This document shows positions 31,068-63,194 of a stretch of 64,000 bases of DNA, piece after piece. The stretch is taken from the IMG/VR virus record IMGVR_UViG_3300021962_009794. The stretch is one strand, 5' to 3'. The DNA comes from a virus. Taxonomy: Duplodnaviria; Heunggongvirae; Uroviricota; Caudoviricetes. A program made the translations under genes and the position numbers. The first letter of the stretch is position 1, and every line of letters starts with the position of its first letter. The notes below the pieces were generated by a model. It saw only the letters and a program-made list of their open reading frames with translations, made no database searches and was not told where the DNA came from.

Positions 31068-32948
31068 ATGGCAGACAAAATGCAAATGTTACTTTCCTAT
31101 TCGTGGATGGTTATCCCAATCTTAGGAATTCTATTCTACAAATTCACTTTACGATTCTTCTTCGGAATGGTAATCATTCCAGAAGACAAGATCGGTTTAG
31201 TAACCAAAAAATTTGTTCTCTTCGGAGCAAACAAATCTCTACCTGACGGAAAAATCATCGCTCTAAACGGAGAGCCTGGTTTCCAAGCAGATACTCTAGC
31301 CCCTGGTTTATATTGGGGATATTGGGTTTGGCAGTATTCAATTGGACAAGCTGAACTAACTATAATTCCTAAAGGTAAAATTGGTTTACTCTCGGCTAAA
31401 GACGGTAAGCAATTGCCAACCGGTGCGATCTTAGCACGTCACGTAGAATGCGACAACTATCAAGATACTAGAGCATTCTTAACAAACGGAGGTCAAAGAG
31501 GTAAGCAAGTTGGATATCTTAATAACGGGGTTTATCGTATTAATCCTTACTTATTCGATTTAGCAATCTCTGACATCACCTACATTGAAGATGGTATGGT
31601 CGGCGTGGTAACCTCATTGGACGGTATTCCGTTAGACCAAGGTAACATCGCAGGTAATGCTATCGAGGGTCACAATAATTATCAGGACTTCGACAAATTT
31701 TTAGCTAACGGAGGGCAACGTGGTCTTCAAATCCAAGTCATTCAAGCTGGTAACTACTCATTAAACCCTTGGGCGGTTGAGATTGAGAAAGTTGAAATGA
31801 CTAAAATTCCAATCGGTCACGTAGGTGTAATCATCTCTTTCGTAGGTAAGGAAGGACAAGACGTAACTGGAGACGGATTCAAACACGGAAATATCGTAAA
31901 GAAAGGAGAAAAAGGTGTTTGTATCACTCCGCTGGATCCAGGTAAATACGCAATCAATCCTTATACTCATAAGATTGAGGTTGTACCAACAACAAACCTT
32001 GTATTGAACTGGGCAAATGCTCGCACAGAATCACACAACCTTGATAAAGGACTAAGCACGATCACTGTACGTTCTAAAGACGGTTTCCCATTCAACTTAG
32101 ACGTATCACAAATCATTCACATTCCTGCACCAGAGGCACCTAAAGTAATTGCCCGATTTGGTTCAATGCAGAATCTTGTATCGCAAGTTCTTGAGCCTAC
32201 TATCGGTAACTACTTCCGTAACTCTGCTCAGGATTCAGATGTTATCTCGTTCTTGTCTACACGTCAAAAACGTCAGGATGCTGCAAAAGAATCTATCTCT
32301 AAAGTTCTTGAGATGTACAACGTTCACGCAGTTGACACATTGATTGGAGACATCACTCCTCCTGAGTCTTTAATGAAAACATTAACCGATCGTAAGATCG
32401 CTCAAGAGGAAGAGGTTACATTTGAAACCCAACGTAAAGCTCAAGACCAACGTAAGACTTTAGAGTCTGCTAAGGCGCTGGCTGATATGCAAGGTCAAAT
32501 GGTATCTGCACAACAATCGGTAGAGATTTCACAACGTGAAGCTGAGGCGGCAGTTAAGAGATCGGAAGGTGAGGCTAAGGCTATGGAACTTAAAGCTGGA
32601 GCTCAGGCAAAAGCTAAGAAGTTAATGGCTGAGGCAGATGCTGCTCAGATCAAATTAACAGGGGACGCAGAAGCATCTAAGATTGCTGCTATCGGTAAAT
32701 CCACAGCAGAAGCTTACGAGCAACAGGTTAAAGCAATGGGAGCTGATAACTTCGGTAAATTAAAAGTTACTGAGATGATTGGTACAAACGGAATCAAAAT
32801 CATTCCTGAAGTACTTATCTCAGGTAACGACGGAGGAAATGGTCCAATCAGCGGATTACTTGGTATGGAATTACTGAAACAAATTCAAGAGAAGTCTGAT
32901 ACAAAGGACGTAAAAACAAATATAAAAGATGCAGGAGATCAAAAATAG
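31068..32948 (+). CDS. SPFH/band-7 flotillin-like membrane protein with internal duplication
   Basis: N-terminal TM helix; Ala/Glu/Lys-rich flotillin-like C-terminal coiled coil; internal repeats FLTNGGQRGKQVGYLNNGVYRINPY and FLANGGQRGLQIQVIQAGNYSLNPW. Confidence 0.55.
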   Translation: MADKMQMLLSYSWMVIPILGILFYKFTLRFFFGMVIIPEDKIGLVTKKFVLFGANKSLPDGKIIALNGEPGFQADTLAPGLYWGYWVWQYSIGQAELTIIPKGKIGLLSAKDGKQLPTGAILARHVECDNYQDTRAFLTNGGQRGKQVGYLNNGVYRINPYLFDLAISDITYIEDGMVGVVTSLDGIPLDQGNIAGNAIEGHNNYQDFDKFLANGGQRGLQIQVIQAGNYSLNPWAVEIEKVEMTKIPIGHVGVIISFVGKEGQDVTGDGFKHGNIVKKGEKGVCITPLDPGKYAINPYTHKIEVVPTTNLVLNWANARTESHNLDKGLSTITVRSKDGFPFNLDVSQIIHIPAPEAPKVIARFGSMQNLVSQVLEPTIGNYFRNSAQDSDVISFLSTRQKRQDAAKESISKVLEMYNVHAVDTLIGDITPPESLMKTLTDRKIAQEEEVTFETQRKAQDQRKTLESAKALADMQGQMVSAQQSVEISQREAEAAVKRSEGEAKAMELKAGAQAKAKKLMAEADAAQIKLTGDAEASKIAAIGKSTAEAYEQQVKAMGADNFGKLKVTEMIGTNGIKIIPEVLISGNDGGNGPISGLLGMELLKQIQEKSDTKDVKTNIKDAGDQK

Positions 32949-33819
32949 GATCTGTTGGAATAAGACAGATAAAGGTTCAGGTGAGATATTCTATTTAGCA
33001 ATGGAGTACACCGGAAAGGATCGGGACGGAAATGATACTGTTTCGATGAAGACTCTGAGAAAATTCTTTGAGTTAGAAACTTACATGATTAAATCAAAGG
33101 TTTCTAAAGAGCAGATAGCAGATCTGGAAAAGCTACATTCGGTAGATCCCAAAGCTATGCTAATCTCTACTATGGAAGAGGAGGATAAAAGAGGTCAGGA
33201 TAAGCTTATCTATAACATGATTAAGTATGCCGGAACTGTTAACGAAAAGATTGGATGGTCAACCATAGTTTTTAAAGCTAACGAATGGTTTGGATATCAG
33301 CCTAAGTTCAGGGTAAAAGAGGACTCGGACATATTCAGAAAGATAGTTTCCGTTTCTAATTTAATCCATAGGACAACGAGAAGATCAGATGCTGATTTTA
33401 TTATAGTAGGACCTGCTATGGGAGCTAGAATAATGAATCTACCGCAATTCGTTTACAACGACCCAAATCAGCCAGATCTAGATCGTAGTACAGGACTTAT
33501 ACATAAAGTTGGTAATCTCGGAAACAAATTCTCTGTAATAATCAATCCAATACTACATTGGAATGACGAGTCTATAGTTATAGGATCTAATACCTTTGAA
33601 GGACAGGAAGGAGTTTATCAGTATGAGATGGAACCAGAGGTAATTGAGACCGAGGGGATAAGTCCAACGAATTTTATGTCTGAGGTCATTCTCCACTACA
33701 AAAAAAGAATGGCTTTGGTAGCAACAGAAAATGCCCACTTAAAATACTATACTCTTAATACAACTACTAAAAGGCATAACATAGTAACTCATCTTATAGA
33801 TAAGATCTTTAAGAAATAA
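32929..33819 (+). CDS. hypothetical protein (296 aa)
   Basis: ORF. Confidence 0.55.
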   Translation: MQEIKNRICWNKTDKGSGEIFYLAMEYTGKDRDGNDTVSMKTLRKFFELETYMIKSKVSKEQIADLEKLHSVDPKAMLISTMEEEDKRGQDKLIYNMIKYAGTVNEKIGWSTIVFKANEWFGYQPKFRVKEDSDIFRKIVSVSNLIHRTTRRSDADFIIVGPAMGARIMNLPQFVYNDPNQPDLDRSTGLIHKVGNLGNKFSVIINPILHWNDESIVIGSNTFEGQEGVYQYEMEPEVIETEGISPTNFMSEVILHYKKRMALVATENAHLKYYTLNTTTKRHNIVTHLIDKIFKK

Positions 33820-36007: not shown

Positions 36008-36817
36008 CTATCTAAGCTTGTCCATCTGGGCCTGTAGCTCGTCAGGCTGAGCAAGTTTACCTGTGGCTGTAGAGTGGGCGCCAGCTAATATACGAGCCAT
36101 AAATCCTGCAGGTTTTGCTTTAAGATTTCCCAGTTCTTCTTCGTATCCGCTAACAACCTGATCCGAAGGAGAAGAATTTAGGGGAGATAAAGGTATTTTA
36201 GATTTATCGATAGCGGCAGCAAATTCTCTTTCGAACTCAGGAGTTCTATCATTTTTGAAATAATCTATAAATCCAACTAGCTCAGCGCTATCAATTTTTC
36301 TTCTATTAACACCTACCCTATCACCCTCTCCAGATTTCTGGTCATTGGTATTACCCTCGACAGTTACAAATTCTCTTCTGGCAACATCTACGCTTAATAC
36401 TATACCGGTGTGACCCAATCCTTTACCTTTTCGAGTCATTATAAATATTTGTCCAGGTTTTATTAAACTTGGATTTGCTTTCGCATTTTTTATATCTATT
36501 TTTGCGGTACGGTCTGAAGAATCCCACATGTTCATAACACCACCAGTCTTAGGAAGTGGGTTAGCTATGTGAAGCCTTTTTGTTGCTTGATCGAATATGT
36601 AATAAACGAAAGCTGCACACCAGGGTAGGCCTGGTTTAAGACCAACTGAAGAAAGATATTGATTTACCATTCTTCCAGTGTTGGAACCTTTAGGCTCTTC
36701 TTTTATATCTTTATTTCCTGCTATTACTCCAGCAAAAACGTCACCTGCTTGGCCTGGATCTGTGAGATCTATTTGTGCTTCCTTTATGAAGTCTTCGAAT
36801 AATTTAATTCTTTTCAT
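36008..36817 (-). CDS. CHAP-domain peptidoglycan hydrolase with MKRIKLFEDF propeptide-like N-terminus
   Basis: PGLPWCAAFVYYIF (CHAP catalytic Cys context) and GLGHTGIVL (His); N-terminal motif-family member. Confidence 0.65.
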   Translation of the reverse strand: MKRIKLFEDFIKEAQIDLTDPGQAGDVFAGVIAGNKDIKEEPKGSNTGRMVNQYLSSVGLKPGLPWCAAFVYYIFDQATKRLHIANPLPKTGGVMNMWDSSDRTAKIDIKNAKANPSLIKPGQIFIMTRKGKGLGHTGIVLSVDVARREFVTVEGNTNDQKSGEGDRVGVNRRKIDSAELVGFIDYFKNDRTPEFEREFAAAIDKSKIPLSPLNSSPSDQVVSGYEEELGNLKAKPAGFMARILAGAHSTATGKLAQPDELQAQMDKLR

Positions 36818-38198: not shown

Positions 38199-38633
38199 AT
38201 GAATCACATTTTAGAATACGAAATGCTCACGGAAGCATTAGACTGGAGGCAAAATGGGTGGGTTCTCATCAAGGGGGTTCCTCAAAATGATGGCAAATGC
38301 TACATTTTTGCTGCACAGATAAAGGAAATTCAGAACTTAGCCAGAACTAAAGTTGACGGAACACCTGGCATACCTGTTTGGATGTGCACTCTGTACCCTA
38401 AATTCTACGGTATAGGTCTAAGATCCGGTAAATTAGCTGCAAAAGAACTTTCTGCAGTTTCCGACGTTTATATGCAAAAATGGATCGGGTTAAACAATTA
38501 CAGAGTTGGTTTAAATCACCACAAAACGATAGGATGGAGGGAAACTATTAAAGACACCTCTTTAGCAAATGTGTTATCAAACCAGGAATGGATAGCCAAA
38601 ACAGATTGGGCTAAGTTTCCTGAATTACAATAA
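38199..38633 (+). CDS. hypothetical protein (144 aa)
   Basis: ORF. Confidence 0.5.
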   Translation: MNHILEYEMLTEALDWRQNGWVLIKGVPQNDGKCYIFAAQIKEIQNLARTKVDGTPGIPVWMCTLYPKFYGIGLRSGKLAAKELSAVSDVYMQKWIGLNNYRVGLNHHKTIGWRETIKDTSLANVLSNQEWIAKTDWAKFPELQ

Positions 38634-42286: not shown

Positions 42287-42711
42287 TGCAATCCATAGTT
42301 AACCGTAAGGCCAGATTTGAATACACGTTTATTGACACCTACACTGCGGGGATATGCCTAATTGGCTCCGAAGTTAAGGCTATCAAAGACGGCAGGGCTT
42401 CTATGGTTGACACATATTGCATTTTTAATAAAGAAGAACTTTGGGTTAAGGGACTAGGGATAACTCCTGGTCCTGGCTCATTTCAGCACGAAGCACTCAG
42501 GGACAAGAAACTTCTACTGAGAAAGAAAGAGCTAAAAAAGCTGAGATCGTCTTTGGATAAAGGTCTTACGATAATACCTGTTAAGATATTCGTAAACGAA
42601 AAGAATAGGTTAAAGATGGAAATAGCTTTAGCTAGAGGTAAGAAGCTTTATGACAAAAGGGAATCTATTAAGGAAAGGGATATAGAGAGGGACATGAGAA
42701 GGAACGATTAA
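42286..42711 (+). CDS. smpB: SsrA-binding protein SmpB
   Basis: NRKARFEYTFIDTYTAGICLIGSEVKA...KLLLRKKEL...KIALARGKKLYDKRESIKERD aligns with bacterial SmpB along its whole length. Confidence 0.85.
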   Translation: MQSIVNRKARFEYTFIDTYTAGICLIGSEVKAIKDGRASMVDTYCIFNKEELWVKGLGITPGPGSFQHEALRDKKLLLRKKELKKLRSSLDKGLTIIPVKIFVNEKNRLKMEIALARGKKLYDKRESIKERDIERDMRRND

Positions 42712-43286
42712 GTCCATCTCATAATATCGGTTGCTCTATTATAAAGGCTAACCAATTTATTTAGATCCTGTTCAGTCTTACCAATTTTCTTCAAGAATGA
42801 CTCTTTGGATTTTAAATCCAGATCTTTATAGATACCCATAAAGATTTCGACATCTTCTTTATAGATAGATTCCAGATAATTTTCTATATTAGGGATTTTA
42901 GATAGGTCAAACGGTATGCCTTGTTTATTATATCTTTTTCTAGCCCAGTTAACAAGATATGCAAATCGGGCATTCCAATCTGCCAAAGATACGATATTTG
43001 AATTAAAATTCTTTAATATGTGAGGTGCACCCTTTCCAAACATGCCTTTAATAGTTTTTCTAACCGGACCGTTACCATAGATAGTTATACATTCAGATGG
43101 ATCACTCATATAAAGAACATCATTATAGATTCTCATATTACCATGTCTCCATATTGTAGATGAAGTGCTATCATAAAATCCAAGCTTTTCTAACAACTTA
43201 AATAGTGGCAACCTTTTAACATCATCAATCGTATAATTATACGAAGAAGACTCAAATAAGGCAAAAGTTTGGAGATTTTTCATCAC
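42708..43286 (-). CDS. hypothetical protein with MMKNLQTFALFES propeptide-like N-terminus
   Basis: ORF; TATATATC motif at 43290-43297 just upstream. Confidence 0.5.
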   Translation of the reverse strand: MMKNLQTFALFESSSYNYTIDDVKRLPLFKLLEKLGFYDSTSSTIWRHGNMRIYNDVLYMSDPSECITIYGNGPVRKTIKGMFGKGAPHILKNFNSNIVSLADWNARFAYLVNWARKRYNKQGIPFDLSKIPNIENYLESIYKEDVEIFMGIYKDLDLKSKESFLKKIGKTEQDLNKLVSLYNRATDIMRWT

Positions 43287-53535: not shown

Positions 53536-54159
53536 TTATTGAAATTTGGTTGCTAGGTTAACTAGATTCTGAAAGTATCCCTTCCACTGAGGATCTAAGG
53601 CAACTAATTCTTGCATAGTAAATTTCTCAGGATTTCCTTTTAGATCAAGATCTTTACCGATTCTTTTATGAACGTTAAGGTAGCAATAATATCCAGATAG
53701 TGCCGGTGTAATAGTTTTCTTTGGCCCATTAACTTCGGCATTAAAATCCATATCAGCAAATGACTTATCCTTGGTAACATATCCAGCTATGAAAGCAGTT
53801 GGGAAATATCCAGTTTCTAATTGGGATTCTTCTTTTCTAACCGCGTTATTCCAAACACCTGCTCCTTTAGCCATACTCATGATCGAAAAGCAGCAATCAG
53901 CAAATCCCTCAAATTTAAAAGTTGATTTAGGAACCATACCGTAGTTAGGAACCTTCAAAGATTTACCAGCAAAGCTGGCTGCGAATTGTTTACAAGCTGC
54001 AAAATACTCAGAGTTCTTATCTCTATCGCTAGCTTCTTCGCCTTTAACCTTGGCTAAATAATCCTCAACCTCTACGCCTTTAGTTGCTTCGGGAGACTCT
54101 AGAGTCTCTGCGTTTGCGGCCTCGAAAATGTAGGATTCGAATAATTTAATACGTTTCAT
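53536..54159 (-). CDS. hypothetical protein with MKRIKLFESY propeptide-like N-terminus
   Basis: ORF 53536..54198 trimmed to the ATG that sits 19 nt downstream of the promoter motif at 54178-54185. Confidence 0.55.
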   Translation of the reverse strand: MKRIKLFESYIFEAANAETLESPEATKGVEVEDYLAKVKGEEASDRDKNSEYFAACKQFAASFAGKSLKVPNYGMVPKSTFKFEGFADCCFSIMSMAKGAGVWNNAVRKEESQLETGYFPTAFIAGYVTKDKSFADMDFNAEVNGPKKTITPALSGYYCYLNVHKRIGKDLDLKGNPEKFTMQELVALDPQWKGYFQNLVNLATKFQ

Positions 54160-54177
54160 TTTAATATGTTTTTTGTT

Positions 54178-54185
54178 TATATATC
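54178..54185 (-). promoter_or_regulatory. GATATATA-type promoter-like motif (minus orientation)
   Basis: 19 nt upstream of the minus-strand ATG at 54159. Confidence 0.35.
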
Positions 54186-55268
54186 TTAGTTGAACCATCC
54201 ACCTTGTAGACCCCTAGCCAGCTTGGAGAGATCTCTAATTCCAGTTCTTTTCAGTACGCCCTCTTTAGTATCAGGGTAAGCATCAAGTATGGTTATTTTA
54301 AGTGGATTGCTTTTAAAGTATGAATCAAGGATCTCGTTGCTCAATATTGTTGTGACCAAAGACCTCGCTTTATCATCATACCCCGGCTTAGCATCGTGAT
54401 TGGGTAATATGTTATATCCTCCGCCTACTTTGTAATATGTTTTGACACTACCTAATTCCAATACTTTAAGACATGTCTCAACATCAAAAGGTTTAATGTC
54501 AAAAAATCTTGTCATTAAATATTCAGCGCCGAAAGATAAATTCAGATCCTTTAAACTTTCCAATTCTGCGGTGCCTATATTAATCCCACCTTTAATACCT
54601 GCGGGGAATCCTTTTGTTGACTTTATACCTCCCCACACACTAATTTTTTTAACACTCGAAGGTGCAAAATCCTCTATGGAATAAATATCCCTCCCTATCA
54701 CATCAATGCTAAATTCTCCCTTTATTTTACCAAACTTGAATCCGATAGGATTATTGTCATTGTTGTAAATGTCTAGTTTAACCGCACCTTCGACGTCAAC
54801 TGAATTTGTATTGGGATTCCATTTCCAAGGGGCTTTAGTTGATTTGTTTATTAGGAGTATATCTTCTTTTGTCAAAGTTCCAGTTGCTTCTGGATTCATC
54901 CTCTTCATTTCCTTTGACCATCTATCCTTTAAATAATTAAAAAGATCCTCAAGGGTAAATGCGGTCTTATATTGCTTAATAAATCCAGAGCTTACACCCT
55001 TGTCCCTGATGTAACCCGACGATTGTAAAACAACTCCGCTTGGATACATGTATGGAACTTCTCTATTAACCACCATGATGGTACCATTTTTAGCCTGGAT
55101 AGGTGTGGTAACGTCTTCGAATCCCATTTCCTCGAGTTCTTTCCATAAATCCATCTCTTTCCAGTTTGTAGGCCATTTTGGATTTCCCTCCGCTTTAAAT
55201 TCTTCAGACAGAAGAATTCTCCTGTCAGAGGAATTTTGATATAGATCGTACTCAAGTATTCTTCTCAT
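54186..55268 (-). CDS. hypothetical protein (360 aa) with MRRILEYDLY propeptide-like N-terminus
   Basis: ORF. Confidence 0.55.
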   Translation of the reverse strand: MRRILEYDLYQNSSDRRILLSEEFKAEGNPKWPTNWKEMDLWKELEEMGFEDVTTPIQAKNGTIMVVNREVPYMYPSGVVLQSSGYIRDKGVSSGFIKQYKTAFTLEDLFNYLKDRWSKEMKRMNPEATGTLTKEDILLINKSTKAPWKWNPNTNSVDVEGAVKLDIYNNDNNPIGFKFGKIKGEFSIDVIGRDIYSIEDFAPSSVKKISVWGGIKSTKGFPAGIKGGINIGTAELESLKDLNLSFGAEYLMTRFFDIKPFDVETCLKVLELGSVKTYYKVGGGYNILPNHDAKPGYDDKARSLVTTILSNEILDSYFKSNPLKITILDAYPDTKEGVLKRTGIRDLSKLARGLQGGWFN

Positions 55269-56098
55269 TATAAATTGTTTCTGAATTCTTTAAATGTTCT
55301 GAAAGATTCTGATTCATTTGGCTTCTCGTCGGTGCTTAATTCTGTACCTTTCTCTTTCTCCCAATGGAATAGTGGTGTGTTCCAAGCAATCTCGAAAGTA
55401 TCCACTGCGTCTCTATATGATTCAGGGGATTCTTCGTTAGCGTCTCTTGTGTACTGCCAGCCCATGAAAAGCTCTTCAGGTACTTGGAATCCAAAGAATT
55501 CCAAAACCTTTCTTTGTGTGGTTAAGCTCTGATCAACCTGCCAGTTTTGACCTATCACAACCAAACCCGCCATTATATTCTCAACTGTGCTTTTCTCACC
55601 GAGTGTTGTGTGCATGTTTTCTATCCAGTCAAGTCTTTCTATGACCTTCTGGTAAATTGCATTAACGCTTCCCCATCTTTGTGATCCGAAGAATATGACT
55701 GCCTGGCTATCATAGATTGCGTTTGCTATCTTATAGAGTTCATCATCTTCGAAGTCATGTGAAGCCCAGCATCTAAGATGCCCGTGTGGGTTCTTTACAT
55801 CGTCTTTAACAGCAGATTCTTTAACGCCGCAGTTATTACCATGTACCTCACTAACACATCCTAAACAATTATGTATATTCAGTTTAGCAGCATCTATAAT
55901 CTCAACCTTAATATCACGTTGTTTTAGCTTATCTGCTAAGTTTCTAGCAAGCTGTGATGATTTTGGGCTCTCGCCAAATTTCTCGACGTAAGGGCTTCTG
56001 CTGGAGGTTGTAATAAAAGTCACCTTCTTGCATGGAGTAAGTTTCTCAATGAACCTCCTTACATCCTCTATCTCAAATCCGTATTTTACGTCTATCAT
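55268..56098 (-). CDS. hypothetical protein, possibly flavodoxin-fold
   Basis: VTFITTSSRSP...IIDAAKLNIHNCLGC resembles NAD(P)H-dependent FMN-reductase/flavodoxin-like proteins; weak. Confidence 0.5.
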   Translation of the reverse strand: MIDVKYGFEIEDVRRFIEKLTPCKKVTFITTSSRSPYVEKFGESPKSSQLARNLADKLKQRDIKVEIIDAAKLNIHNCLGCVSEVHGNNCGVKESAVKDDVKNPHGHLRCWASHDFEDDELYKIANAIYDSQAVIFFGSQRWGSVNAIYQKVIERLDWIENMHTTLGEKSTVENIMAGLVVIGQNWQVDQSLTTQRKVLEFFGFQVPEELFMGWQYTRDANEESPESYRDAVDTFEIAWNTPLFHWEKEKGTELSTDEKPNESESFRTFKEFRNNL

Positions 56099-56100
56099 AA

Positions 56101-56451
56101 TTAATATCTAGTTGGCATTCTATCGTTTCCGCCTCTTCCTTCTTGCATCTTAGCCATTACAAGACCAAATAAGAATGCGTTAAAAGCTTCGTAATGATCC
56201 GAAGCATAAATTACATTGTTATCTATTGCTACACCTGATTGTCCGTCTGGAGTGTGTCTAATTGATAAATTAGGGTACATTCTTTTAACATCAGCTTCAA
56301 GTCTTGCTCTCATAGCTTCCTGTTCTCTTGTTACTGGCTGCTCTTCATTAGATGGAACTGAAACATCAGATGTTTGTGTTCTCAATTGTGGAACGTTAGG
56401 CATCTCAGGAGATTCGTTTACAAAGCTTTCATACATTTTTATATTCAGCAT
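56101..56451 (-). CDS. hypothetical protein with MLNIKMYESF propeptide-like N-terminus
   Basis: ORF; promoter motif at 56472-56479. Confidence 0.5.
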   Translation of the reverse strand: MLNIKMYESFVNESPEMPNVPQLRTQTSDVSVPSNEEQPVTREQEAMRARLEADVKRMYPNLSIRHTPDGQSGVAIDNNVIYASDHYEAFNAFLFGLVMAKMQEGRGGNDRMPTRY

Positions 56452-56471
56452 GGTTATTCTTTTATTTGCTC

Positions 56472-56479
56472 TATATATC
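56472..56479 (-). promoter_or_regulatory. GATATATA-type promoter-like motif (minus orientation)
   Basis: 21 nt upstream of the minus-strand start at 56451. Confidence 0.35.
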
Positions 56480-56593
56480 TAAAAAAGAAAGACGAGAGTA
56501 GCGAATTCCCGTCTTTCAGTGATCGTAACCACTCCGGTCCTAAAATGGGGGATTAAACCCGCCGGATACTGTATATATGATACTAACGGAGGG

Positions 56594-56601
56594 GATATAT
56601 A
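56594..56601 (+). promoter_or_regulatory. GATATATAG promoter-like motif
   Basis: 5 nt upstream of the ATG at 56606. Confidence 0.35.
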
Positions 56602-56605
56602 GAGT

Positions 56606-57061
56606 ATGATGAAATTTATCAGAACCTTTGATGATTACGAGAATCAAATGGTTCCAACCAGTTTTAAAGTTACCGAGCCAGGAGTCAAAAATATTGCGGA
56701 CCAATTTCTAAGGGATCTTGGAAAGGATTACGATCTAAGGGTTGGCAAAGAGTTTGATCCGAAGAAAGGTAACTGTGCTTGGTATGTCCAAGAATTTTAT
56801 CAATGGGCGGAGAATAATAGAACACCAGTTAGAATAGTTTACTTTCCGGAGACAGAGAAAGCTAAAGATGCTCACATAGCAATTTTAATTGACGATTTAG
56901 TGCTCGATTTCGCTCATAAACAGTTTTCTAAAGACAAGAAAGAGAAATACGCTATATTGCCTTTAAAAGCTTATAAAAAGTACGGTTATTCGGATAAGAT
57001 GGAACTTTTGGACGAGGTTCCTAGCTGGATCGAAGACATTTACCCTTTAGACGAGAAATAG
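56606..57061 (+). CDS. hypothetical protein (151 aa)
   Basis: ORF. Confidence 0.5.
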   Translation: MMKFIRTFDDYENQMVPTSFKVTEPGVKNIADQFLRDLGKDYDLRVGKEFDPKKGNCAWYVQEFYQWAENNRTPVRIVYFPETEKAKDAHIAILIDDLVLDFAHKQFSKDKKEKYAILPLKAYKKYGYSDKMELLDEVPSWIEDIYPLDEK

Positions 57062-57062
57062 T

Positions 57063-57545
57063 TTAATTCTTCTTAATTTCTTTCTTCATCTTGTCAATCT
57101 TTTTAAGAATTGGCGAGATATCAGGTTTAGACTCGGGCCTCGGAGCTTGTTCCATTCTCATCATCATTGGTTCTTCTCCATCTGATCCATTACTTCTCAT
57201 AAGAACCTTAGGACGTTCTTCAAGGGTTTTACACTTGAAAGCTTCCGATCGTATCTCATCAAGCATCTTTATAAACTCACTTTCCCTTTGAAAGAGTTCT
57301 TGAGTACAAGATCTTTGACCTTCTCTAAGTCTTTGATCTAATGTGTCTATCTGGGTCTCAAGAGAGTTTATCCTTTCAGTTTGCTTTTCTATCTGATCTT
57401 CCAATTCCTTTCTGTCTGTAGTTATGGATGAAATGAAGCTAGGGGCAATGGTAATTATGGTGATAGTGGTTAGAACCATCAACAACGCCATTATTCTTTG
57501 TGTTCTGGTGAACTGTGCTAGTATTTCTGAGATGTACTTGAACAT
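57063..57545 (-). CDS. membrane-anchored coiled-coil protein
   Basis: N-terminal TM helix MALLMVLTTITIITIAPSFI followed by a coiled-coil segment. Confidence 0.45.
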   Translation of the reverse strand: MFKYISEILAQFTRTQRIMALLMVLTTITIITIAPSFISSITTDRKELEDQIEKQTERINSLETQIDTLDQRLREGQRSCTQELFQRESEFIKMLDEIRSEAFKCKTLEERPKVLMRSNGSDGEEPMMMRMEQAPRPESKPDISPILKKIDKMKKEIKKN

Positions 57546-57560
57546 TATCCTTGTTTTATT

Positions 57561-59246
57561 TTATATTCCATAGAAGCTTCTGGTTGCCTCGAAGTTCTGA
57601 GATATTTGAGAAGCGGTTAGGGCTGAGTTATACATCCTTACAACACCAAACTTACCATTGAACCATTGTCCGAATGTTGCACCCCCGTCGAAAGATCCCA
57701 TATATAACGAATGTGTTGTGTTTTTAATACTGGCAAAGGAGTGACTGTTACTTCCTTGGCTAACCCCATTAACATAAAGAGCAATTGAGTTTGAAGCAAC
57801 ATTAGTCCAGACTCCTACAATCTGATACCAAGTATTCGTTGACAATGTATAAGAAGGTGAAGTAATCGAAGTGGTGCCGTTACCAACCTCCATGTATGTT
57901 GAGCCTGAAGAATTTGTTCTAATACCATACCCCCAATCAGCTGCGTTACCTCCGTCAGTCTTACCTATCACGCATCTACTAGATCCAGCTATAACGGAGT
58001 GATTGATCCAAATCTCTACGGTCCAATCACCAGATCCTGGTTCTAATGTTGCGCTATCTGCTGTCGATGCAGTTGCATTTGTACCGTTGTAATTTAAGTA
58101 TGGATTGGTAAAGGTAACGTTGGTTAGTGTACTGGTCAAGGAGTTACCTGACATGTCACTTAATGATGTTCCCGATCCGGAATAACTATATAAATCTCCA
58201 GGATTATAGTAGAGAACTAGATTCTGAAGTACTGGAGAAAGGTATTTAGATGCGCCAGTATTATAGATTGACTGAACGCTAGAGAAATTTAGACCAGTAT
58301 TATAAACAAGAACCTCTGCTATCTTACCCGGGAAATATTCTGAGCCGTTTGTAACCCCTATAGTTAAGTTATTAGCATTCGGAACCGCATGACCTGATCC
58401 TGGGGTGTCTGAAGCTGCAGTGGCCCCATTTACCCAAATTGTTCTAGTTGTCCCGTTGAATGCTGCAACCACGTTAAACCATTGGAGAGATCTAAATCCG
58501 GAAGGATAAACCGCTAGATCGTTATTCCACCAATAGTTAACCAATCCATTAGTAGCAAGTATTCTGAAAGCATTCACCTGATTGTTTGAACCGTAATTAC
58601 CCCATCCGATCAATCCATATGCTCCAGCCATAGAATTGGCATTAATCCATAGACTAATAGTATATTGATCATTCTGTGTCGGAATAAGACTGGTTGAAGA
58701 GAAACTTACGTAAGATAAAGATCCGGTAAAATACATGTTATCTGGACCATTTGAACTATAAGTGACTGAGTTAAGAGTTCCGTTATTTCCGTTACCTGAG
58801 AGATCATACCAAGTTGATCCGCTTCCCGAATATGATGATGGATTCGAAGCATCCAGATATAAAACCATTCCGGAAGGTATAGTTGTAAACGAAGTCCAGT
58901 ACCCGTTGGTGTTTAGCCATGTTTTAGCGGCACTTCCTGTTGAAAAAGGTCCTCCACCAGAGAGTCTAGCAACAACATTAGAAATCGATATGAAAGACGA
59001 TTCGGTTAGATCAGTAGACCTATAAAATCCAACAGATCCAGAAACACCAGTTATTGGAGTTGGTTGGGTGTCACCAGGAACAGGTTCTGCGATAACATAT
59101 CCAGTATCCTCGTCTGGTCCATTCCACCACTCAAGACCCGTAGCAGAAAATCCTGCTGTGGGATAGCCTACAGCTAAACTACCAACCTGTTCAGTTCCCG
59201 CTATAGCTGATCCTGTATTGTATGAAAAGGGTCTTGCTGTTGCCAT
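57561..59246 (-). CDS. LamG/concanavalin-A-like double-domain protein (virion or fibre protein candidate)
   Basis: Two blocks with the LamG pattern (W.N....G..GL.G.....N..R.....G...W.N.......W.....NG; TVEIWINHS...YQIVGVWTN...LYVNG); rich in S/T/N/G. Confidence 0.55.
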   Translation of the reverse strand: MATARPFSYNTGSAIAGTEQVGSLAVGYPTAGFSATGLEWWNGPDEDTGYVIAEPVPGDTQPTPITGVSGSVGFYRSTDLTESSFISISNVVARLSGGGPFSTGSAAKTWLNTNGYWTSFTTIPSGMVLYLDASNPSSYSGSGSTWYDLSGNGNNGTLNSVTYSSNGPDNMYFTGSLSYVSFSSTSLIPTQNDQYTISLWINANSMAGAYGLIGWGNYGSNNQVNAFRILATNGLVNYWWNNDLAVYPSGFRSLQWFNVVAAFNGTTRTIWVNGATAASDTPGSGHAVPNANNLTIGVTNGSEYFPGKIAEVLVYNTGLNFSSVQSIYNTGASKYLSPVLQNLVLYYNPGDLYSYSGSGTSLSDMSGNSLTSTLTNVTFTNPYLNYNGTNATASTADSATLEPGSGDWTVEIWINHSVIAGSSRCVIGKTDGGNAADWGYGIRTNSSGSTYMEVGNGTTSITSPSYTLSTNTWYQIVGVWTNVASNSIALYVNGVSQGSNSHSFASIKNTTHSLYMGSFDGGATFGQWFNGKFGVVRMYNSALTASQISQNFEATRSFYGI

Positions 59247-59252
59247 GTTAAT

Positions 59253-59260
59253 TATATATC
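59253..59260 (-). promoter_or_regulatory. GATATATA-type promoter-like motif (minus orientation)
   Basis: 7 nt upstream of the minus-strand start at 59246. Confidence 0.35.
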
Positions 59261-59261
59261 A

Positions 59262-59286
59262 CAAAAAAAGCAGGGATGAACCTGCT
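59262..59286 (-). terminator. rho-independent terminator (minus strand)
   Basis: gcagg-gatgaa-cctgc hairpin with the T-run on the minus strand (plus-strand A-run 59263-59269); follows minus gene 59309..59899. Confidence 0.65.
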
Positions 59287-59308
59287 CTTTCTATTATGTA
59301 ATTGGGAT

Positions 59309-59899
59309 TTAAAATTTCACTCCAAATTTCTTAACAATGCCATTAAGTTTTGCAAGTTCTTCCTCGTTTAATTCCTCTTTCAACCAATAAGAGAGTTTTG
59401 TTAATCTTAGATTCGGATTCTTCTTATAGAATTCTTCTCTTGCTTTCCAATAAGCCTCTACGTTTCCTGTACCGCCATCTTTTTTCCAGAAATTCATGCT
59501 TGATATAACGTCCTTCATCATAGCAGGAAATATGTTCCATCTATTAGAAACCTGCTTACTGAATGCGTCTACTTTACCTGAGATCAATTCACCAAAGAAA
59601 GCTAAACCAGACCCACCGCCTGAAGAGTAGTTAAAATCAAACAGATCCCAAAGTGCCATAAGCTGAATTAGTTCTGCCTTGGTCTTAATCTTAGAAAAGA
59701 CGGAGAATATTGCATCCTCATCAGTTCCTGTACCTTGCATTGCTTTCCATAAAGTTTTACAGTTTTCTGCTGCCTGCTTTGCCGCCGGATTATCTTTAAT
59801 GTACTTAGCAATAACAGCCACCTTGTTTCTGTTATAAGCATCCTCTAGGATTGGCTCTGAAGAAGAATCGAATGTTTCGTATAATTTAATGTACTTCAT
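59309..59899 (-). CDS. hypothetical protein with MKYIKLYETF propeptide-like N-terminus
   Basis: ORF. Confidence 0.55.
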   Translation of the reverse strand: MKYIKLYETFDSSSEPILEDAYNRNKVAVIAKYIKDNPAAKQAAENCKTLWKAMQGTGTDEDAIFSVFSKIKTKAELIQLMALWDLFDFNYSSGGGSGLAFFGELISGKVDAFSKQVSNRWNIFPAMMKDVISSMNFWKKDGGTGNVEAYWKAREEFYKKNPNLRLTKLSYWLKEELNEEELAKLNGIVKKFGVKF

Positions 59900-59929
59900 T
59901 ATGGTAATTTTTTTATATCCTTATATATT

Positions 59930-60829
59930 TTAAATCATGCCTTTAATTTTGGTATATGTTGATAAAGCTTTGTACTTTCTGATCTCCTCTTGACTTAAAG
60001 CAGGATTGTCCTTGTACATCAGAATTCTATCCTCATCTGGCATGTCAGGCCAAAATTCTTCTAGTGCTTCCGTATATGTTCTTCTTCGACTTCCCCCTCC
60101 TTGATTCATTATCTCTATAATATTTTTTAGAGTGCCTGGAGAAACTGGGTTGTCCCGGCAGAAAATCCCGTTAGTCTTTGGTGCACCTTCTAGAGACACG
60201 ATAAGATTTCTACTACAGTAGATATCCTTCACTACCTCTGGTGCTCCTACTAATGAGGTGAGCTTATTGTCGCTACAGTTCAATGAGCTTAATAGTTCCC
60301 TAGGTGATCCTTCTAAAGTTGTGAGCTTGTTTTCAGATGCGTGAAGAGTATAGTAGACATTCTGGGGTGCTCCTACTAGTGAGGTGAGTTTGTTATTAGA
60401 GCAATCAAAAACTCTAGCAACCTTTTCTGGTGCGCCCTCTAAAGTTTCCAATATATTCACACTGCAATCAAAATCTCCACCAACTTCCCTCGGAGATCCT
60501 ATTAGGTTCTTAAGGGAGTTCTGTGCGCAGATAAAATTCGCACCAACAAAAACGGGTGAGCCAACTAAGGAGGTGAGAGCGTTGGAGCTGCAATCGAAAC
60601 TGCCCTTAATCTCTCCGAATTCTATTCCTTTAAAGTCTCGTAATTTTTGTCCCTGACAGACGAATTTCCCGTAAACATCAACCTTACCTGTTGAAGGATT
60701 ATACTCCCATGATCCATACGCTCCACCCAACACGCCCTTATCAAGCCATCTCATCTGTTCTTTAGTGAACACCTTTCTGATTGGCTCTGATTCGGATTCA
60801 AATACGTGGTATGGTGTAACGTGCTTCAT
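59930..60829 (-). CDS. repeat protein (about 23-aa LTSLEGAP-type leucine-rich-like repeats) with MKHVTPYHVFES N-terminus and conserved C-terminal module
   Basis: Repeats G.P..V.G.F.CS.N.LTSL.GAP; the C-terminal W..MPDEDRILMY...EE.RKYKAL..Y.KIK module is shared with 62015..62554 and 62583..63194. Confidence 0.55.
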   Translation of the reverse strand: MKHVTPYHVFESESEPIRKVFTKEQMRWLDKGVLGGAYGSWEYNPSTGKVDVYGKFVCQGQKLRDFKGIEFGEIKGSFDCSSNALTSLVGSPVFVGANFICAQNSLKNLIGSPREVGGDFDCSVNILETLEGAPEKVARVFDCSNNKLTSLVGAPQNVYYTLHASENKLTTLEGSPRELLSSLNCSDNKLTSLVGAPEVVKDIYCSRNLIVSLEGAPKTNGIFCRDNPVSPGTLKNIIEIMNQGGGSRRRTYTEALEEFWPDMPDEDRILMYKDNPALSQEEIRKYKALSTYTKIKGMI

Positions 60830-60833
60830 AATT

Positions 60834-60841
60834 TATATATC
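60834..60841 (-). promoter_or_regulatory. GATATATA-type promoter-like motif (minus orientation)
   Basis: 5 nt upstream of the minus-strand start at 60829. Confidence 0.35.
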
Positions 60842-60843
60842 CG

Positions 60844-60873
60844 CAAAAAAAGCAGACAAAAGCCTGCTTTTTA
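60844..60873. terminator. bidirectional-looking rho-independent terminator
   Basis: A-run, agcag...ctgct hairpin, TTTTT; follows minus gene 60891..61250. Confidence 0.6.
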
Positions 60874-60890
60874 GATTATGTAATTGATTC

Positions 60891-61250
60891 TTATGCTCTG
60901 TTCTTGATTCTTACAAGCTTATCATAAAGGAATCCTGCCTCGTCTTCAACATTTTGTAGATCTAAAGTCTTACCCTTATAAATAATCTCTGGAGTGTTCT
61001 TGTCGACAAGAAAAGAGTTGTCATTTATCCAAGCAACAATCACACCTGGTTTAATCTCTCTTACGTTACTTACCCAATCCTGCTGGCGAGCAGCTGAGGT
61101 AGCATTATGCAATGTTTCCAAAGATTTTCTGTCTTCTTTATTCTCGAATCCTAGTGCTTTCTTAGCACCGCTAGCAATTCTAGAAAAGAACCCTGCGGGT
61201 TTTTCCATTGGGCCTTCTTTGAAATCTTCGAATAGTTGGAGGTTTTTCAT
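60891..61250 (-). CDS. hypothetical protein with MKNLQLFEDF propeptide-like N-terminus
   Basis: ORF. Confidence 0.5.
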   Translation of the reverse strand: MKNLQLFEDFKEGPMEKPAGFFSRIASGAKKALGFENKEDRKSLETLHNATSAARQQDWVSNVREIKPGVIVAWINDNSFLVDKNTPEIIYKGKTLDLQNVEDEAGFLYDKLVRIKNRA

Positions 61251-61291
61251 TCAGTTCGTAATTTTTTATTCTTTATATATTCCGAACCAGA

Positions 61292-61978
61292 CTATTTCTT
61301 CTCAGTCATAGTAGGAATTGGAGTTCCAACAGGGTAAGGGAATCCTTGTTTAGCTGCTGTTACTGAAGTCTGCCCATTTTTAACAGGAACTGCTATACGT
61401 AAAGGAACTGCAGCTTCATTAAGTGGTCCGTAAACTTTAGCTAACACTATGCCAGTCTCTGTAGTGTCGAAGATCACACCAGGCATGGCAAACATGTTGC
61501 TCTCAGATGTAGCTGGATCTTCCATGTTGATCGTGAATGCTCTGTTCACTGGACTCATCATCTCCCATTGCTTATTTGCAGGGTTGAACTGAGGAATAGT
61601 TGTTGTGGTGTCGAAGTACCAGAATAAACTCCAAACTGTCTTATCACTTCCGTCTGGGGTTTGGAAGGCGGTAGCCACGTTGAAATCTCCCCAAGTACCA
61701 CCACTTCCATACATGGCTAGATTAGAGATAGAAGGTCCGTCAAGTACAGGACAGATAGCGCATCCCTCTTTATATTCAACACCTTGGATAACAATTGTCT
61801 TGCCGGTAGGTACTGCAGCAGATGCTCCACAGAAAGCAAATTTGCCTTTGTGAATTCTAAGCACACCAGCTTCATTCTCTTGTGCAACTTCTATTTGGGT
61901 CTCATGCTTCTTCTCTGAGCATGCTGTAAAGGCAAGCATTGCGGCTGCCATTAGTAATAGTTTTGTTGTTTTCATCAT
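61292..61978 (-). CDS. putative lipoprotein (228 aa)
   Basis: MMKTTKLLLMAAAMLAFTAC signal peptide plus lipobox; promoter motif at 61999-62006. Confidence 0.55.
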   Translation of the reverse strand: MMKTTKLLLMAAAMLAFTACSEKKHETQIEVAQENEAGVLRIHKGKFAFCGASAAVPTGKTIVIQGVEYKEGCAICPVLDGPSISNLAMYGSGGTWGDFNVATAFQTPDGSDKTVWSLFWYFDTTTTIPQFNPANKQWEMMSPVNRAFTINMEDPATSESNMFAMPGVIFDTTETGIVLAKVYGPLNEAAVPLRIAVPVKNGQTSVTAAKQGFPYPVGTPIPTMTEKK

Positions 61979-61998
61979 GGTTTATTATTTTATTACCC

Positions 61999-62006
61999 TA
62001 TATATC
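61999..62006 (-). promoter_or_regulatory. GATATATA-type promoter-like motif (minus orientation)
   Basis: 21 nt upstream of the minus-strand start at 61978. Confidence 0.35.
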
Positions 62007-62014
62007 GGGTGAAA

Positions 62015-62554
62015 TTAGATCACGTCTTTTATTCTATTGTAGAGTTTAAAAGCTTTCAGCTTTCTCTCCTCTTCGGGACTCACCCATTTTAAATCTGGTG
62101 TATATAAAGCTGCCTTGGTGTTGTCGCTAAGTGATGGCCACACCATCTCCAATGATTTTGGGTCCAGATTTTTCTCAATAGCCTCCATAGCTTCCGCTCT
62201 TTCCTCTTTGAAGTATTCTCTGTTCTCCTCCCATATATCATCCTCTGTTACTTCCTCTCCCGGAGATAAGCCATCACCATGTTCAATCGCATCGCCTATT
62301 AGAACCCCTCTGTTTAGCCACACATCGGTATATCCTGGTCCCTCTTTTGTCAGATCAACGAGTATAGAGAGGTCGGTATTCAAAGTTTCGGCAAATTCAT
62401 CAAGTTCATCGAGAAGATCCTCCGGCGGATCATCACCTTCAATAAACCAGCTCTCCCCTGATAGGGCTTTGATCTTATAGAATATTATAAGATCTTCTTT
62501 ATTAAATTTATCAAATTCGGATTCAAAAACTGTATATGGTGTGACGTGCTTCAT
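62015..62554 (-). CDS. hypothetical acidic protein with MKHVTPYTVFES N-terminus and shared C-terminal module
   Basis: ORF 62015..62650 trimmed to the ATG 6 nt downstream of the promoter motif at 62560-62567; C-terminal W...DLKWVSPEEERKLKAFKLYNRIKDVI. Confidence 0.5.
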   Translation of the reverse strand: MKHVTPYTVFESEFDKFNKEDLIIFYKIKALSGESWFIEGDDPPEDLLDELDEFAETLNTDLSILVDLTKEGPGYTDVWLNRGVLIGDAIEHGDGLSPGEEVTEDDIWEENREYFKEERAEAMEAIEKNLDPKSLEMVWPSLSDNTKAALYTPDLKWVSPEEERKLKAFKLYNRIKDVI

Positions 62555-62559
62555 AGAAC

Positions 62560-62567
62560 TATATATC
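62560..62567 (-). promoter_or_regulatory. GATATATA-type promoter-like motif (minus orientation)
   Basis: 6 nt upstream of the ATG at 62554. Confidence 0.35.
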
Positions 62568-62582
62568 CATGGATAAGGTGCG

Positions 62583-63194
62583 TCATAGCATGTTCTTGAT
62601 GTTGCTATAAAACAGAAAGGCCTCAATCTTTCTTTTCTCCTCGGAACCAATCCAATAAAAATTTGGTCTGTATAAAAGAACCTGATCCTCTATAGGAATC
62701 TCGCTCCATAGAAGTTCAACTGAATCCAGGTAGTTCTGATATAAAAGTCCTCCCATGAGGTGGGCTATTTTGTGAAGAACCTCTTCAGAAACTGGATTCG
62801 TTGAGACCCATAGCGCGCCACCGATCTTCCTGGGTAATCCCTCCAGACTGGTGAGCTGGTTTTTATTAAGGGTTAGATGTCCACCAACCTCACTAGGTGC
62901 GTTCTTCAGAGAGGTGAGGGGGTTGCTGGTGAGATACAGGTGACTCAAGATCTCCCTAGGGAATCCATCCAGAGTGGTGAACAGGTTGTCATCGGCGTTG
63001 AAGTACCCTGTGACCGTTCCAAACCTCACGCCCTTCAGATCTCTCAGACCCTGACGGCTGCAATCGAAATTACCCTTCACGCTCACCAGCCCAGTCGAGG
63101 CATCGTGGCTCAGATTGCCGCTGGTGCAGGAGGAGAGCCAATCAATTTGCTCTCTGCTTAGGACTGGGAGTTGTGGATTAGGAACAGTTCTCAT
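62583..63194 (-). CDS. GC-rich paralog of the 59930..60829 repeat protein, lacking the N-terminal propeptide motif
   Basis: STGLVSVKGNFDCSRQGLRDLKGVRFG, LTSLEG repeats and C-terminal W.EIPIEDQVLLY...EEKRKIEAF.FYSNIKNML match the paralog; start set at M55 of the track ORF; codon usage visibly GC-richer than neighbours. Confidence 0.45.
   Translation of the reverse strand: MRTVPNPQLPVLSREQIDWLSSCTSGNLSHDASTGLVSVKGNFDCSRQGLRDLKGVRFGTVTGYFNADDNLFTTLDGFPREILSHLYLTSNPLTSLKNAPSEVGGHLTLNKNQLTSLEGLPRKIGGALWVSTNPVSEEVLHKIAHLMGGLLYQNYLDSVELLWSEIPIEDQVLLYRPNFYWIGSEEKRKIEAFLFYSNIKNML

Follow-up and report, generated by a model that had tools for sequence, protein, structure and literature searches.

Why should many otherwise unrelated proteins of a single phage begin with nearly the same few residues? 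The question is raised by a stretch of 64,000 nucleotides (nt) from the IMG/VR virus record IMGVR_UViG_3300021962_009794 (Caudoviricetes), called the window below, in which a preliminary description had recognised a short N-terminal prefix, most frequent in a minus-strand block at 53,536 to 63,194, and had likened it to the capsid-targeting sequence (CTS) of T4 internal proteins (IPs). The answer we arrived at is that the shared N-terminus, or tag, is probably a T4-type capsid-targeting propeptide, removed by a protease, on a large and diverse set of late proteins. The idea drew support from the restriction of the module to phages, its linkage to head genes, its promoter, the size of the tagged proteins, the depletion of a cleavage-type motif in them, and forms that bridge to T4, and was weakened by the failure to find the protease of this genome in about 93 kb. 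Delivery of the proteins into the host is probable but less certain, and we infer scaffold binding, cleavage, packaging, and ejection from the sequences.

All 11 N-termini listed in the preliminary description were present in the window where it had placed them. The canonical form there was M-x-x-[ILV]-[KQ]-[LMT]-[FY]-E, and its core, [ILV][KQ][LMT][FY]E, occupied residues 4 to 8 in 7 of the 102 window genes, compared with 1 match among 18,442 internal residues. A relaxed core, [ILMV][FY]E, was found in the first 14 residues of 10 of the 102 genes, compared with 25 internal matches. A looser amphipathic pattern (hydrophobic residue 4, aromatic residue 7, often followed by [ILV]-x-E) brought in 16 further genes, and a few N-termini outside these 16 were alike by eye, such as those at 52960 (MIHNWNEWNSLNE/A, with the slash here and below marking the known or candidate cleavage position) and at 23699 (MQNHLLKYKNWLAE/S). 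The original membership thus grew by these 16 and also needed pruning, as the last gene in the range (62583-63194) has no prefix and that starting at 55268 matches only loosely. The prefix is real, but the conserved unit is longer than the 8 residues first proposed and typically comprises 13. The genes of the block and the other members discussed below are as follows.

53536..54159, minus strand: prefix gene, 207 amino acids (aa), MKRIKLFESYIFE/AA, canonical 13-residue form; ORFan payload without a Pfam or PHROG match.
54178..54185, minus strand: putative late-promoter element GATATATA, 18 nt upstream of the 54159 start.
54186..55268, minus strand: leucine-rich repeat (LRR)-like repeat protein, 360 aa, loose prefix MRRILEYDLY; paralogue of 59930-60829, internal in the late operon starting at 56451.
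56101..56451, minus strand: prefix gene, 116 aa, MLNIKMYESFVNE/SP; GATATATA at 56472-56479.
56606..57061, plus strand: variant-prefix gene, 151 aa, MMKFIRTFDDYEN; GATATATA at 56594-56601, 4 nt before the ATG.
57561..59246, minus strand: Laminin_G_3 (concanavalin-like) protein, 561 aa, no prefix; GATATATA at 59253-59260.
59309..59899, minus strand: prefix gene, 196 aa, MKYIKLYETFDSSSEPILE/D, long form; AATATATA at 59922-59929, terminator hairpin at 59269-59286.
59930..60829, minus strand: LRR-like repeat protein, 299 aa, MKHVTPYHVFE/SE, diverged prefix; GATATATA at 60834-60841.
60891..61250, minus strand: prefix gene, 119 aa, MKNLQLFEDFKEGPME; AATATATA at 61274-61281.
61292-61978: lipoprotein behind a putative late promoter, MMKTTKLLLMAAAMLAFTAC..., embedded in the prefix-gene block.
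62015..62554, minus strand: acidic protein, 179 aa, MKHVTPYTVFE/SE; GATATATA at 62560-62567, C terminus paralogous to the LRR-like family.
62583..63194, minus strand: LRR-like paralogue, 203 aa, no prefix (MRTVPNPQL...).
36008..36817, minus strand: CHAP peptidoglycan hydrolase, 269 aa, MKRIKLFEDFIKE/AQ; last gene of a late operon (37868 to 36008).
22122..22763, plus strand: prefix gene, 213 aa, MQNLKLYEEF; GATATATA at 22110-22117, 4 nt before the ATG.
24496..24873, plus strand: prefix gene, 125 aa, MRNIKLYELW; comes after 23699-24496 (MQNHLLKYKNWLAE/S; GATATATA at 23687).
42708..43283, minus strand: prefix gene, 191 aa, MKNLQTFALFE/SS; GATATATA at 43290-43297.
3585..4829, plus strand: variant-prefix gene, 414 aa, MEKVSKYDEFIGE/AY, looser pattern.
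38199..38633, plus strand: variant-prefix gene, 144 aa, MNHILEYEMLTE/AL; GATATATA at 38187.

That the members are otherwise unrelated was borne out for the most part: all-against-all BLASTP with the first 14 residues trimmed revealed no similarity except within one LRR-like paralogue set (54186-55268, 59930-60829, 62583-63194, and the C terminus of 62015-62554). The LRR-like proteins of the window were 42 to 46% identical to a multi-copy, canonical-prefix family of a 246-kb phage, in which the copies are scattered among head and tail genes, and the 59930 protein aligned from residue 1 with one member of that family (L073, MKHIKLFEEFSAT...), so that MKHVTPYHVFE is to be read as a diverged prefix. 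The prefix is conserved as a peptide rather than as the shared translation-initiation context that the preliminary description had allowed for, since window members use different synonymous codons where the residues are kept (L, TTA/CTA/CTG; I, ATT/ATA; K, AAA/AAG; E, GAA/GAG). It does not look like a Sec, Tat, or lipoprotein signal peptide: the charged residues K2, K5, E8, and E13 alternate with hydrophobic ones, and there is no hydrophobic run. True signal-type starts in the window, those of 61292-61978 (MMKTTKLLLMAAAMLAFTAC) and 51112-52548, look different.

Beyond the window, the prefix proved to be a local variant of a module with the full consensus MKHIKLFEQF[ILV]xE. A distant relative (L015) has six tandem genes starting with MK(R/H/K)IKLFE(Q/D/E)F(I/L)xE. 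When IMG/VR was scanned with a back-translated M-K-x-I-K-L-F-E-[EQ]-F pattern, at least 120 stretches were found, on contigs of 5 to 256 kb, and bacterial and archaeal genomes totalling 596 Gb gave a single match to the same pattern, located on a 3.9-kb contig of a metagenome-assembled genome. Among 82 distinct genes, positions 11 to 13, which lie outside the search pattern, were [IVL] in 88%, mostly N, S, T, or A, and E in 89%, respectively, and the information content, 3.6 bits at position 13, was 1.2 at position 14 and less than 1 beyond. The payloads behind the tag differ from gene to gene and include RimK-like ATP-grasp, cytidylyltransferase-like, and 2H/LigT-like phosphoesterase proteins and LRR-like repeats.

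The tag has much in common with the T4 CTS. In the T4 record NC_000866, IPII and IPIII start with MKTYQEFIAE/A and IPI with MKTFKEFTSTTTPVSTITE/A. T4 gp23 has SFLTE/A at the boundary of its 65-residue propeptide, and T4 gp22 starts with MLKEQLIAE/A. The T4 CTS is a propeptide of 10 to 20 residues which is enough to load foreign proteins into proheads and is removed by gp21 (Mullaney & Black 1996; PMC9958956, PMC5694885, PMC3012670); Alt is cut at ITE-6 (PMC9958956; PMC5694885), and IPI* comprises 76 of the 95 residues of IPI (PMC3012670). According to Rao and Black, T-even internal proteins are diverse defence proteins with the CTS as their sole common part (PMC3012670). Like the CTS, the tag is N-terminal, 10 to 20 residues long, starts with M-K-x-h-x-x-F (h, hydrophobic), and is carried by unrelated proteins; in the canonical set and the CHAP family it also ends with [IL]-x-E before a small residue. 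Its tail, FEQFINE, compares with YQEFIAE in T4, and the two are bridged by a short, 11-aa form, MI[KN]NFxxF[LM]NE, which occurs alongside the long form next to the head module of L137 (6875-11820), and by MKNFTRFINE/N in the 735-kb megaphage LR756501 (L267, 224948-249460). Short (10 aa) and long (19 aa) forms exist as in T4, the window protein starting with MKYIKLYETFDSSSEPILE/D having the layout of T4 IPI, and other prefix-bearing phages share with T4 a Peptidase_S77 protease and a Gp23 capsid. Several features set the tag apart from the T4 sequence: its consensus has 3 more residues, recognisable enzymes occur among the payloads, the probable hosts are Bacteroidota, protease and repeat-bearing scaffold form a single fusion, and the tag is known from sequence alone. 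The number of tagged genes also differs: the 64 kb of the window contain 7 canonical and 16 looser ones and 14.6 kb of L137 at least 11, versus the four named in T4 (IPI-III and Alt). T-even phages have polymorphic loci for internal proteins (Repoila et al. 1994, cited in PMC3012670), but these are confined to close enterobacterial relatives of T4 with few such genes per genome, unlike the tag, which is spread across IMG/VR contigs of 5 to 256 kb and megaphages.

The tagged genes were closely linked to genes of head assembly. Loci selected by the prefix contained genes for a T4-type portal (gp20, Portal_T4), Peptidase_S77 (the gp21 family), and the Gp23 capsid protein (phmmer and Pfam, above cut-offs), and Peptidase_S77 was the sole capsid protease family among 25 of the 38 matching Pfam families in these loci; the proteases of related phages were primarily S77 by Pfam, with weaker S80 matches. 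The order portal, prefix gene, S77-scaffold gene, and then prefix genes or the major capsid protein (MCP) gene was seen in L098, L113, L140, L095, L116, and L137. In L098 the portal gene is followed by that of a MKHIKLFEQFIGE protein, the S77-scaffold gene, and three genes for MKHIKLFEQF proteins; in L140 the S77-scaffold gene lies between two prefix genes; in L095 prefix genes are followed by the S77-scaffold and MCP genes; and in L137 at least 11 prefix genes (14.6 kb) lie next to the S77-scaffold and MCP genes. The S77-scaffold genes that we delimited are the following.

L098, 3186-5063: S77-scaffold gene.
L113, 5117-6994: S77-scaffold gene.
L095, 2264-4309: S77-scaffold gene.
L140, 648-2420: S77-scaffold gene.

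In these genes the S77 domain is fused to a scaffold with about 10 tandem 14-residue repeats, [FY]-S-N-Y-[LIV]-A-E-x-[LV]-D-x-G-[IL]-x, each of which holds h-[LIV]-x-E (here Y[LIV]AE), as does the end of the tag. The fused scaffold looks built for cutting at regular intervals. An unbiased sample was obtained from loci picked by the protease domain alone (a profile scan of IMG/VR, of which the best 80 matches, closest to L113, were taken as L173-L252). In 37 of the 62 evaluable loci of this sample, the gene directly upstream of the protease gene carried the prefix (for example, MKIFKTFEEFIAE/D and MKYLRLFEQFIKE/A), and the portal, protease, and MCP themselves were without it. In T4, genes 67, 68, and 22 occupy the slots in which related phages have prefix genes in their head modules, and it is gene 68 that holds the slot directly upstream of the protease. 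The proteins from this slot have an acidic tail like that of T4 gp67 and an internal YYAE site. No clear MCP propeptide site was identified in L113 or L095: [ILV]-x-E is absent where these proteins align with T4 E65, and the only motifs of the kind in them were the N-terminal LINE/A and EINE/T.

If tagged proteins enter the prohead and survive its protease, their size and composition may bear traces of this. None of 199 prefix proteins exceeded 400 aa (maximum, 381), compared with 161 of 1,065 other proteins (p = 2e-13). With scaffold proteins removed and controls size-matched, h-[ILV]-[NSTA]-E was depleted in the bodies of tagged proteins (ratio, 0.39; bootstrap 95% confidence interval, 0.19 to 0.66), and control motifs ending in D or K were enriched in them (1.57 and 2.07). 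These observations bear on the strongest of the competing explanations, according to which the tag does target the prohead but the proteins are core or scaffold accessories, degraded or expelled at maturation, and not delivered effectors. The best-conserved tagged gene, with its gp67-like acidic tail and internal YYAE, does lie in the gene 67/68 slot beside the protease, and T4 gp67 and gp68 are cut into fragments (PMC5694885). However, the majority of tagged proteins are diverse, evolve fast, and resemble enzymes (CHAP, a prefix-like SLT, ATP-grasp, cytidylyltransferase-like, and 2H phosphoesterase proteins), the motif depletion in their bodies suggests survival of the protease, and the T4 IPs and Alt are a precedent for surviving cargo; we therefore regard this explanation as unlikely.

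Families of tagged proteins differed in the position of the cleavage-type site. In the CHAP family, F7, F10, and E13 were invariant in 53 homologues down to 48% identity, and E8 was present in 13 of the 53; C67 and H136, likewise invariant, are taken as the putative catalytic pair. All full-length proteins among the best 120 CHAP relatives carried the prefix, and there was no prefix-less homologue among them for a comparison of modularity. In the family of the 59309 protein, K2, L6, E8, and F10 were invariant, the site at 11 to 13 had decayed, and [ILV]LE was found near residue 19 in 8 of 9 members. Cleavage after residue 8 or 11, as first predicted, is therefore contradicted by the CHAP family, in which E13 and not E8 is kept, and possible in the 59309 family. 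Orthologues of the 22122 protein were 0.7 to 0.9 identical in the prefix and 0.45 to 0.75 in the next 20 residues; those of the 24496 protein were 0.8 to 0.9 identical in the prefix, 0.25 in a linker with indels, and 0.83 in the body, a layout of kept tag, indel-rich linker, and kept body. The constant part is the amphipathic helix (h4, F7, F10), with a cleavage-type site that varies, as in T4. As a further internal control, a conventional endolysin candidate with PG_binding_1 and GH19 domains about 5 kb upstream of the window (L165 4195-5013) has no tag, and the SLT lytic transglycosylase of a 348-kb relative (L257 10577-11449) has the prefix-like start MDKIKSFKEFTLNE/K; its orthologue is truncated at the end of L169.

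An AlphaFold2 model of the CHAP protein left residues 1 to 12 unstructured, with a predicted local distance difference test score of <50, and detached from the CHAP domain (>90). An amphipathic helix that is detached from the folded domain would also suit an N-terminal interaction helix with another purpose (chaperone binding, oligomer formation, degradation or timing, or localisation), unrelated to the capsid, and many tagged genes, such as those of the window and L015, lie far from head genes, in the case of the window with no protease found in about 93 kb. Such a helix would not account for a tag boundary with an invariant [ILV]-x-E like that of the scaffold repeats, the embedding of tagged genes in head modules, the likeness to the T4 CTS with its bridging forms, the 400-aa ceiling, or the motif depletion, and we consider it slightly less plausible still than the assembly accessories.

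The promoter of the prefix genes suggests that they belong to the same stage of infection as the head genes. The 35 nt preceding the protease gene contained (G/A)ATATATA in 63 of 63 protease-selected loci; the figures were 55 of 59 for the portal gene and 53 of 62 for the prefix gene preceding the protease, compared with 27% for other genes. The MCP gene is without this element and appears to be co-transcribed. Judged by this distribution, (G/A)ATATATA is the late promoter of this phage group, used in the window too, and the T4 late promoter TATAAATA is its counterpart. The promoter motif of the preliminary description was real and sharper than described: GATATATA occurred 20 times, always in the correct orientation and 4 to 22 nt before a start codon, with a bimodal spacing of 4 to 6 nt (leaderless-like) or 16 to 22 nt (for example, at 22110, 38187, 54178, and 60834). 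The element preceded 14 of 23 prefix-like starts and 9 of 79 other window genes (odds ratio, 12; p = 4e-6), and most other prefix genes were internal in operons that start with GATATATA. Going by the promoter shared with portal and protease, the prefix genes would be expressed late, when proheads assemble. A scan for sigma-70 promoters gave 28 sites versus 27.7 expected. That each gene also has its own terminator held for only some of them; clear hairpins with T-runs follow the genes ending at 53536 and 59309 (scan), and a third terminator-like hairpin lies upstream of 60829, at about 60845-60868 (by eye).

The Laminin_G_3 protein (57561..59246), whose second-best PHROG match is annotated "virion structural protein," served as an internal control with the late promoter and without the prefix. 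That this gene and those of the portal, protease, and MCP are late and without the tag speaks against the tag as a general need for translation of near-leaderless late mRNA. Synonymous codon use in the module was close to background, save for a skew to AAA at K5 (98%), CTA at L6, and CAC at H3. It is very improbable that the prefix reflects an RNA or translation-initiation need of leaderless or near-leaderless late mRNAs in a host without Shine-Dalgarno pairing, or a 5' recombination cassette that shuffles genes, with a peptide devoid of function. In favour of this are the position of GATATATA, often just 4 to 6 nt before the ATG, the A-rich sequence in front of window start codons, in which no Shine-Dalgarno motif was seen, and the skew at K5, L6, and H3. 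Against it, codons otherwise follow the background although the encoded residues do not vary, the prefix is missing from the late genes with the strongest expression, tagged genes are also found at internal operon positions without a promoter of their own, and a family at 48% identity keeps E13, F7, and F10 without exception.

For a capsid-targeting propeptide, we propose the following course of events. Late in infection, the (G/A)ATATATA promoter would drive the expression of otherwise unrelated small proteins, each starting with an amphipathic helix (hydrophobic residue 4, aromatic residues 7 and 10) with [ILV]-x-E nearby. As the tag resembles one scaffold repeat unit, [FY]-x-x-[FYH]-[LIV]-x-E, it may co-assemble with the scaffolding core during prohead formation; how the T4 CTS recognises the core has been called mysterious (PMC9958956), and the resemblance suggests a concrete answer. 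A Peptidase_S77 (T4 gp21-type) prohead protease would then cut scaffold and cargo at h-[LIV]-x-E and remove the tag, at E13 in canonical members and at E8 or about E19 in other families (compare ITE-6, IAE-10, and ITE-19 in T4). The mature proteins would remain in the head with the DNA and most likely be ejected into the next host. Candidate cargo in this phage comprises the CHAP hydrolase, LRR-like proteins, and many ORFans, to which a close relative adds the SLT protein; in other phages, ATP-grasp, cytidylyltransferase-like, and 2H phosphoesterase proteins are candidates. To call them anti-defence effectors, as was done initially, is speculation, the payloads being mostly ORFans.

Several observations weigh against a capsid-targeting propeptide. 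Between about -9.4 kb and +83.7 kb in window coordinates, neither a head module nor an S77 protease of this genome came to light, a reach of about 93 kb that was obtained with ±10-kb flanks from public assemblies and the last 10 kb from a close relative (348 kb); nor were contigs of this lineage among the best 80 IMG/VR matches to the protease profile. Two phages with S77-scaffold genes, the Tenacibaculum phage pT24 and the megaphage LR756500, have no prefix genes beside the protease, the portal, protease, and MCP genes of LR756500 lying back to back. No homology of the proteins encoded directly upstream of the protease to T4 gp67, gp68, or gp22 was detected by hhalign. Four of the 7 canonical window members are without [ILV]-x-E at residues 11 to 13 and have only L-[FY]-E at 6 to 8 and/or a site near residue 19, which leaves their cleavage site uncertain. 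The codon skew, together with the many starts 4 to 6 nt from the promoter element, may point to an extra RNA-level constraint on the prefix. No cultured phage with the prefix was found in searches of GenBank phages. Finally, a cargo load of about 15 to 20% of genes, if real, would be very large.

Other packaging systems also invite comparison. The phages phiKZ, 201phi2-1, and SPN3US have many head-internal proteins cut at x-x-E by a gp21-related S80 protease, and in phiKZ-type giant phages paralogues share identical N-terminal 15-mers (PMC5694885, PMC7411985). The propeptides of these phages are mostly 80 to 160 residues long, end in S/A/G-x-E, and have no short consensus in common across unrelated proteins; the tag, of 10 to 20 residues with I, L, or V two positions before the glutamate, is of another type. 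The Dar anti-restriction proteins of phage P1 are packaged in the head through protein-protein hierarchies with no shared tag (PMC9024508, PMC12810830). A further parallel lies outside phages. In encapsulins, a short terminal peptide, usually C-terminal and uncleaved, loads cargo into a shell with the HK97 fold.

The principle of the capsid-targeting propeptide has been known from T4 since the 1990s. The 13-residue consensus, how widely it occurs in uncultured T4-like phages, how large the repertoire is, and the likeness of tag and scaffold repeat are new in that searches of the literature found no match for the motif strings or comparable repertoires. Finding the phage proteins that travel with the DNA is hard when there are no purified virions to study, and the majority of environmental phages have not been cultured; if the tag is a capsid-targeting signal, such cargo could be read from sequence in hundreds of uncultured phage genomes. 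First-strike candidates would thereby be named, for cell-wall breaching, possible anti-defence, and host takeover, the T4 internal-protein strategy would prove to have been expanded many-fold in jumbo phages, and a portable 13-residue tag (MKHIKLFEQFINE as written for a fusion) would be available for loading foreign proteins into capsids of non-E. coli phages. More tentatively, and as a possibility rather than a probability, one address tag, with its short and long variants, may mark capsid cargo across a very large uncultured T4-like group that includes jumbo phages and megaphages, by mimicking the scaffold repeat, with about 10 to 20% of genes loaded and injected. Such an arsenal of injected effectors would far exceed that known for any other phage, would be predictable directly from metagenomes, and would span peptidoglycan hydrolases, nucleotide/NAD-type enzymes, 2H phosphoesterases, and LRR-like binders.

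By its gene content, the window (GC content, about 38%; about 100 genes) is part of an uncultured jumbo phage with T4-like genes, among them those for a Dda-like helicase, RnlA-like and RnlB-like RNA ligases, a Thg1-like enzyme, and an ECF-type sigma factor. Megablast found no close GenBank phage, and tblastn matches to GenBank phages were all below 60% identity. The same or nearly the same DNA was present in several ENA, JGI, and Logan metagenome assemblies, and an IMG/VR relative, IMGVR_UViG_3300027770_000025 (348,582 bp), encodes an RNA ligase 84% identical to that of the window. The host is probably a member of Bacteroidota, because no Shine-Dalgarno sequence was seen and the nearest relatives of the protease belong to Lak phages, other megaphages, and a Tenacibaculum phage. 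The bS21 phages of Chen et al. could not be equated with this lineage, as their GC content is 31 to 34% versus about 38% here and no contig identifiers common to both were found.

One window gene belongs to a capsid family.

32929..33819, plus strand: Gp23-family (T4 capsid fold) paralogue, 296 aa; Pfam PF07068, 40.1 bits versus a cut-off of 24.4.

This paralogue points to T4-like ancestry and is not the functional capsid gene. It adjoins a gene for an SPFH/Band7 protein (626 aa, 31068-32948), and about 3 kb upstream, 29165-29620 encodes a weak Peptidase_S77-like domain without the conserved His and Ser blocks, comparable to the diverged, probably inactive protease paralogue of giant phages (SPN3US gp117). 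The three form a "shadow" head-like gene set amid nonstructural genes, in which the Gp23 paralogue and the S77-like domain suggest the ancestry and are not the working enzymes.

Other genes of the window and its surroundings deserve mention. RNA-repair genes at 9819-10958, 11787-12236, 19310-20398, 27492-28070, and 28067-28915 encode a set comprising RnlA-like and RnlB-like ligases, an AAA_33 kinase, a HAD_SAK_2 domain protein, and a Thg1-like tRNA-His guanylyltransferase, which suggests tRNA defence against host anticodon nucleases. A GIY-YIG-like gene (MYHYVYKLEHLE...) at 6809-7510, with a GATATATA element of its own, is also present in L165 and L168 but not in L166 and L167, two assemblies that are otherwise collinear; presence/absence polymorphism of this kind is typical of homing endonucleases. 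The gene at 51112-52548 encodes a tyrosinase-domain protein with a lipoprotein-type signal peptide, and its neighbour at 50457-50993 an ECF-type sigma factor (Sigma70_r2/r4_2); the lipoprotein of the prefix-gene block (61292-61978) could be a superinfection-exclusion or envelope-acting protein. Beyond the right end of the window, in L169 (about 12000-19600) and L257 (10000-20400), dozens of small genes are each preceded by ATAACCAA(C/T)TAAAAC, a second promoter or leader class distinct from GATATATA. Just beyond the window, L169 19183-19617 encodes a protein of 144 aa with 36% identical homologues on two IMG/VR contigs (244,834 and 246,964 bp).

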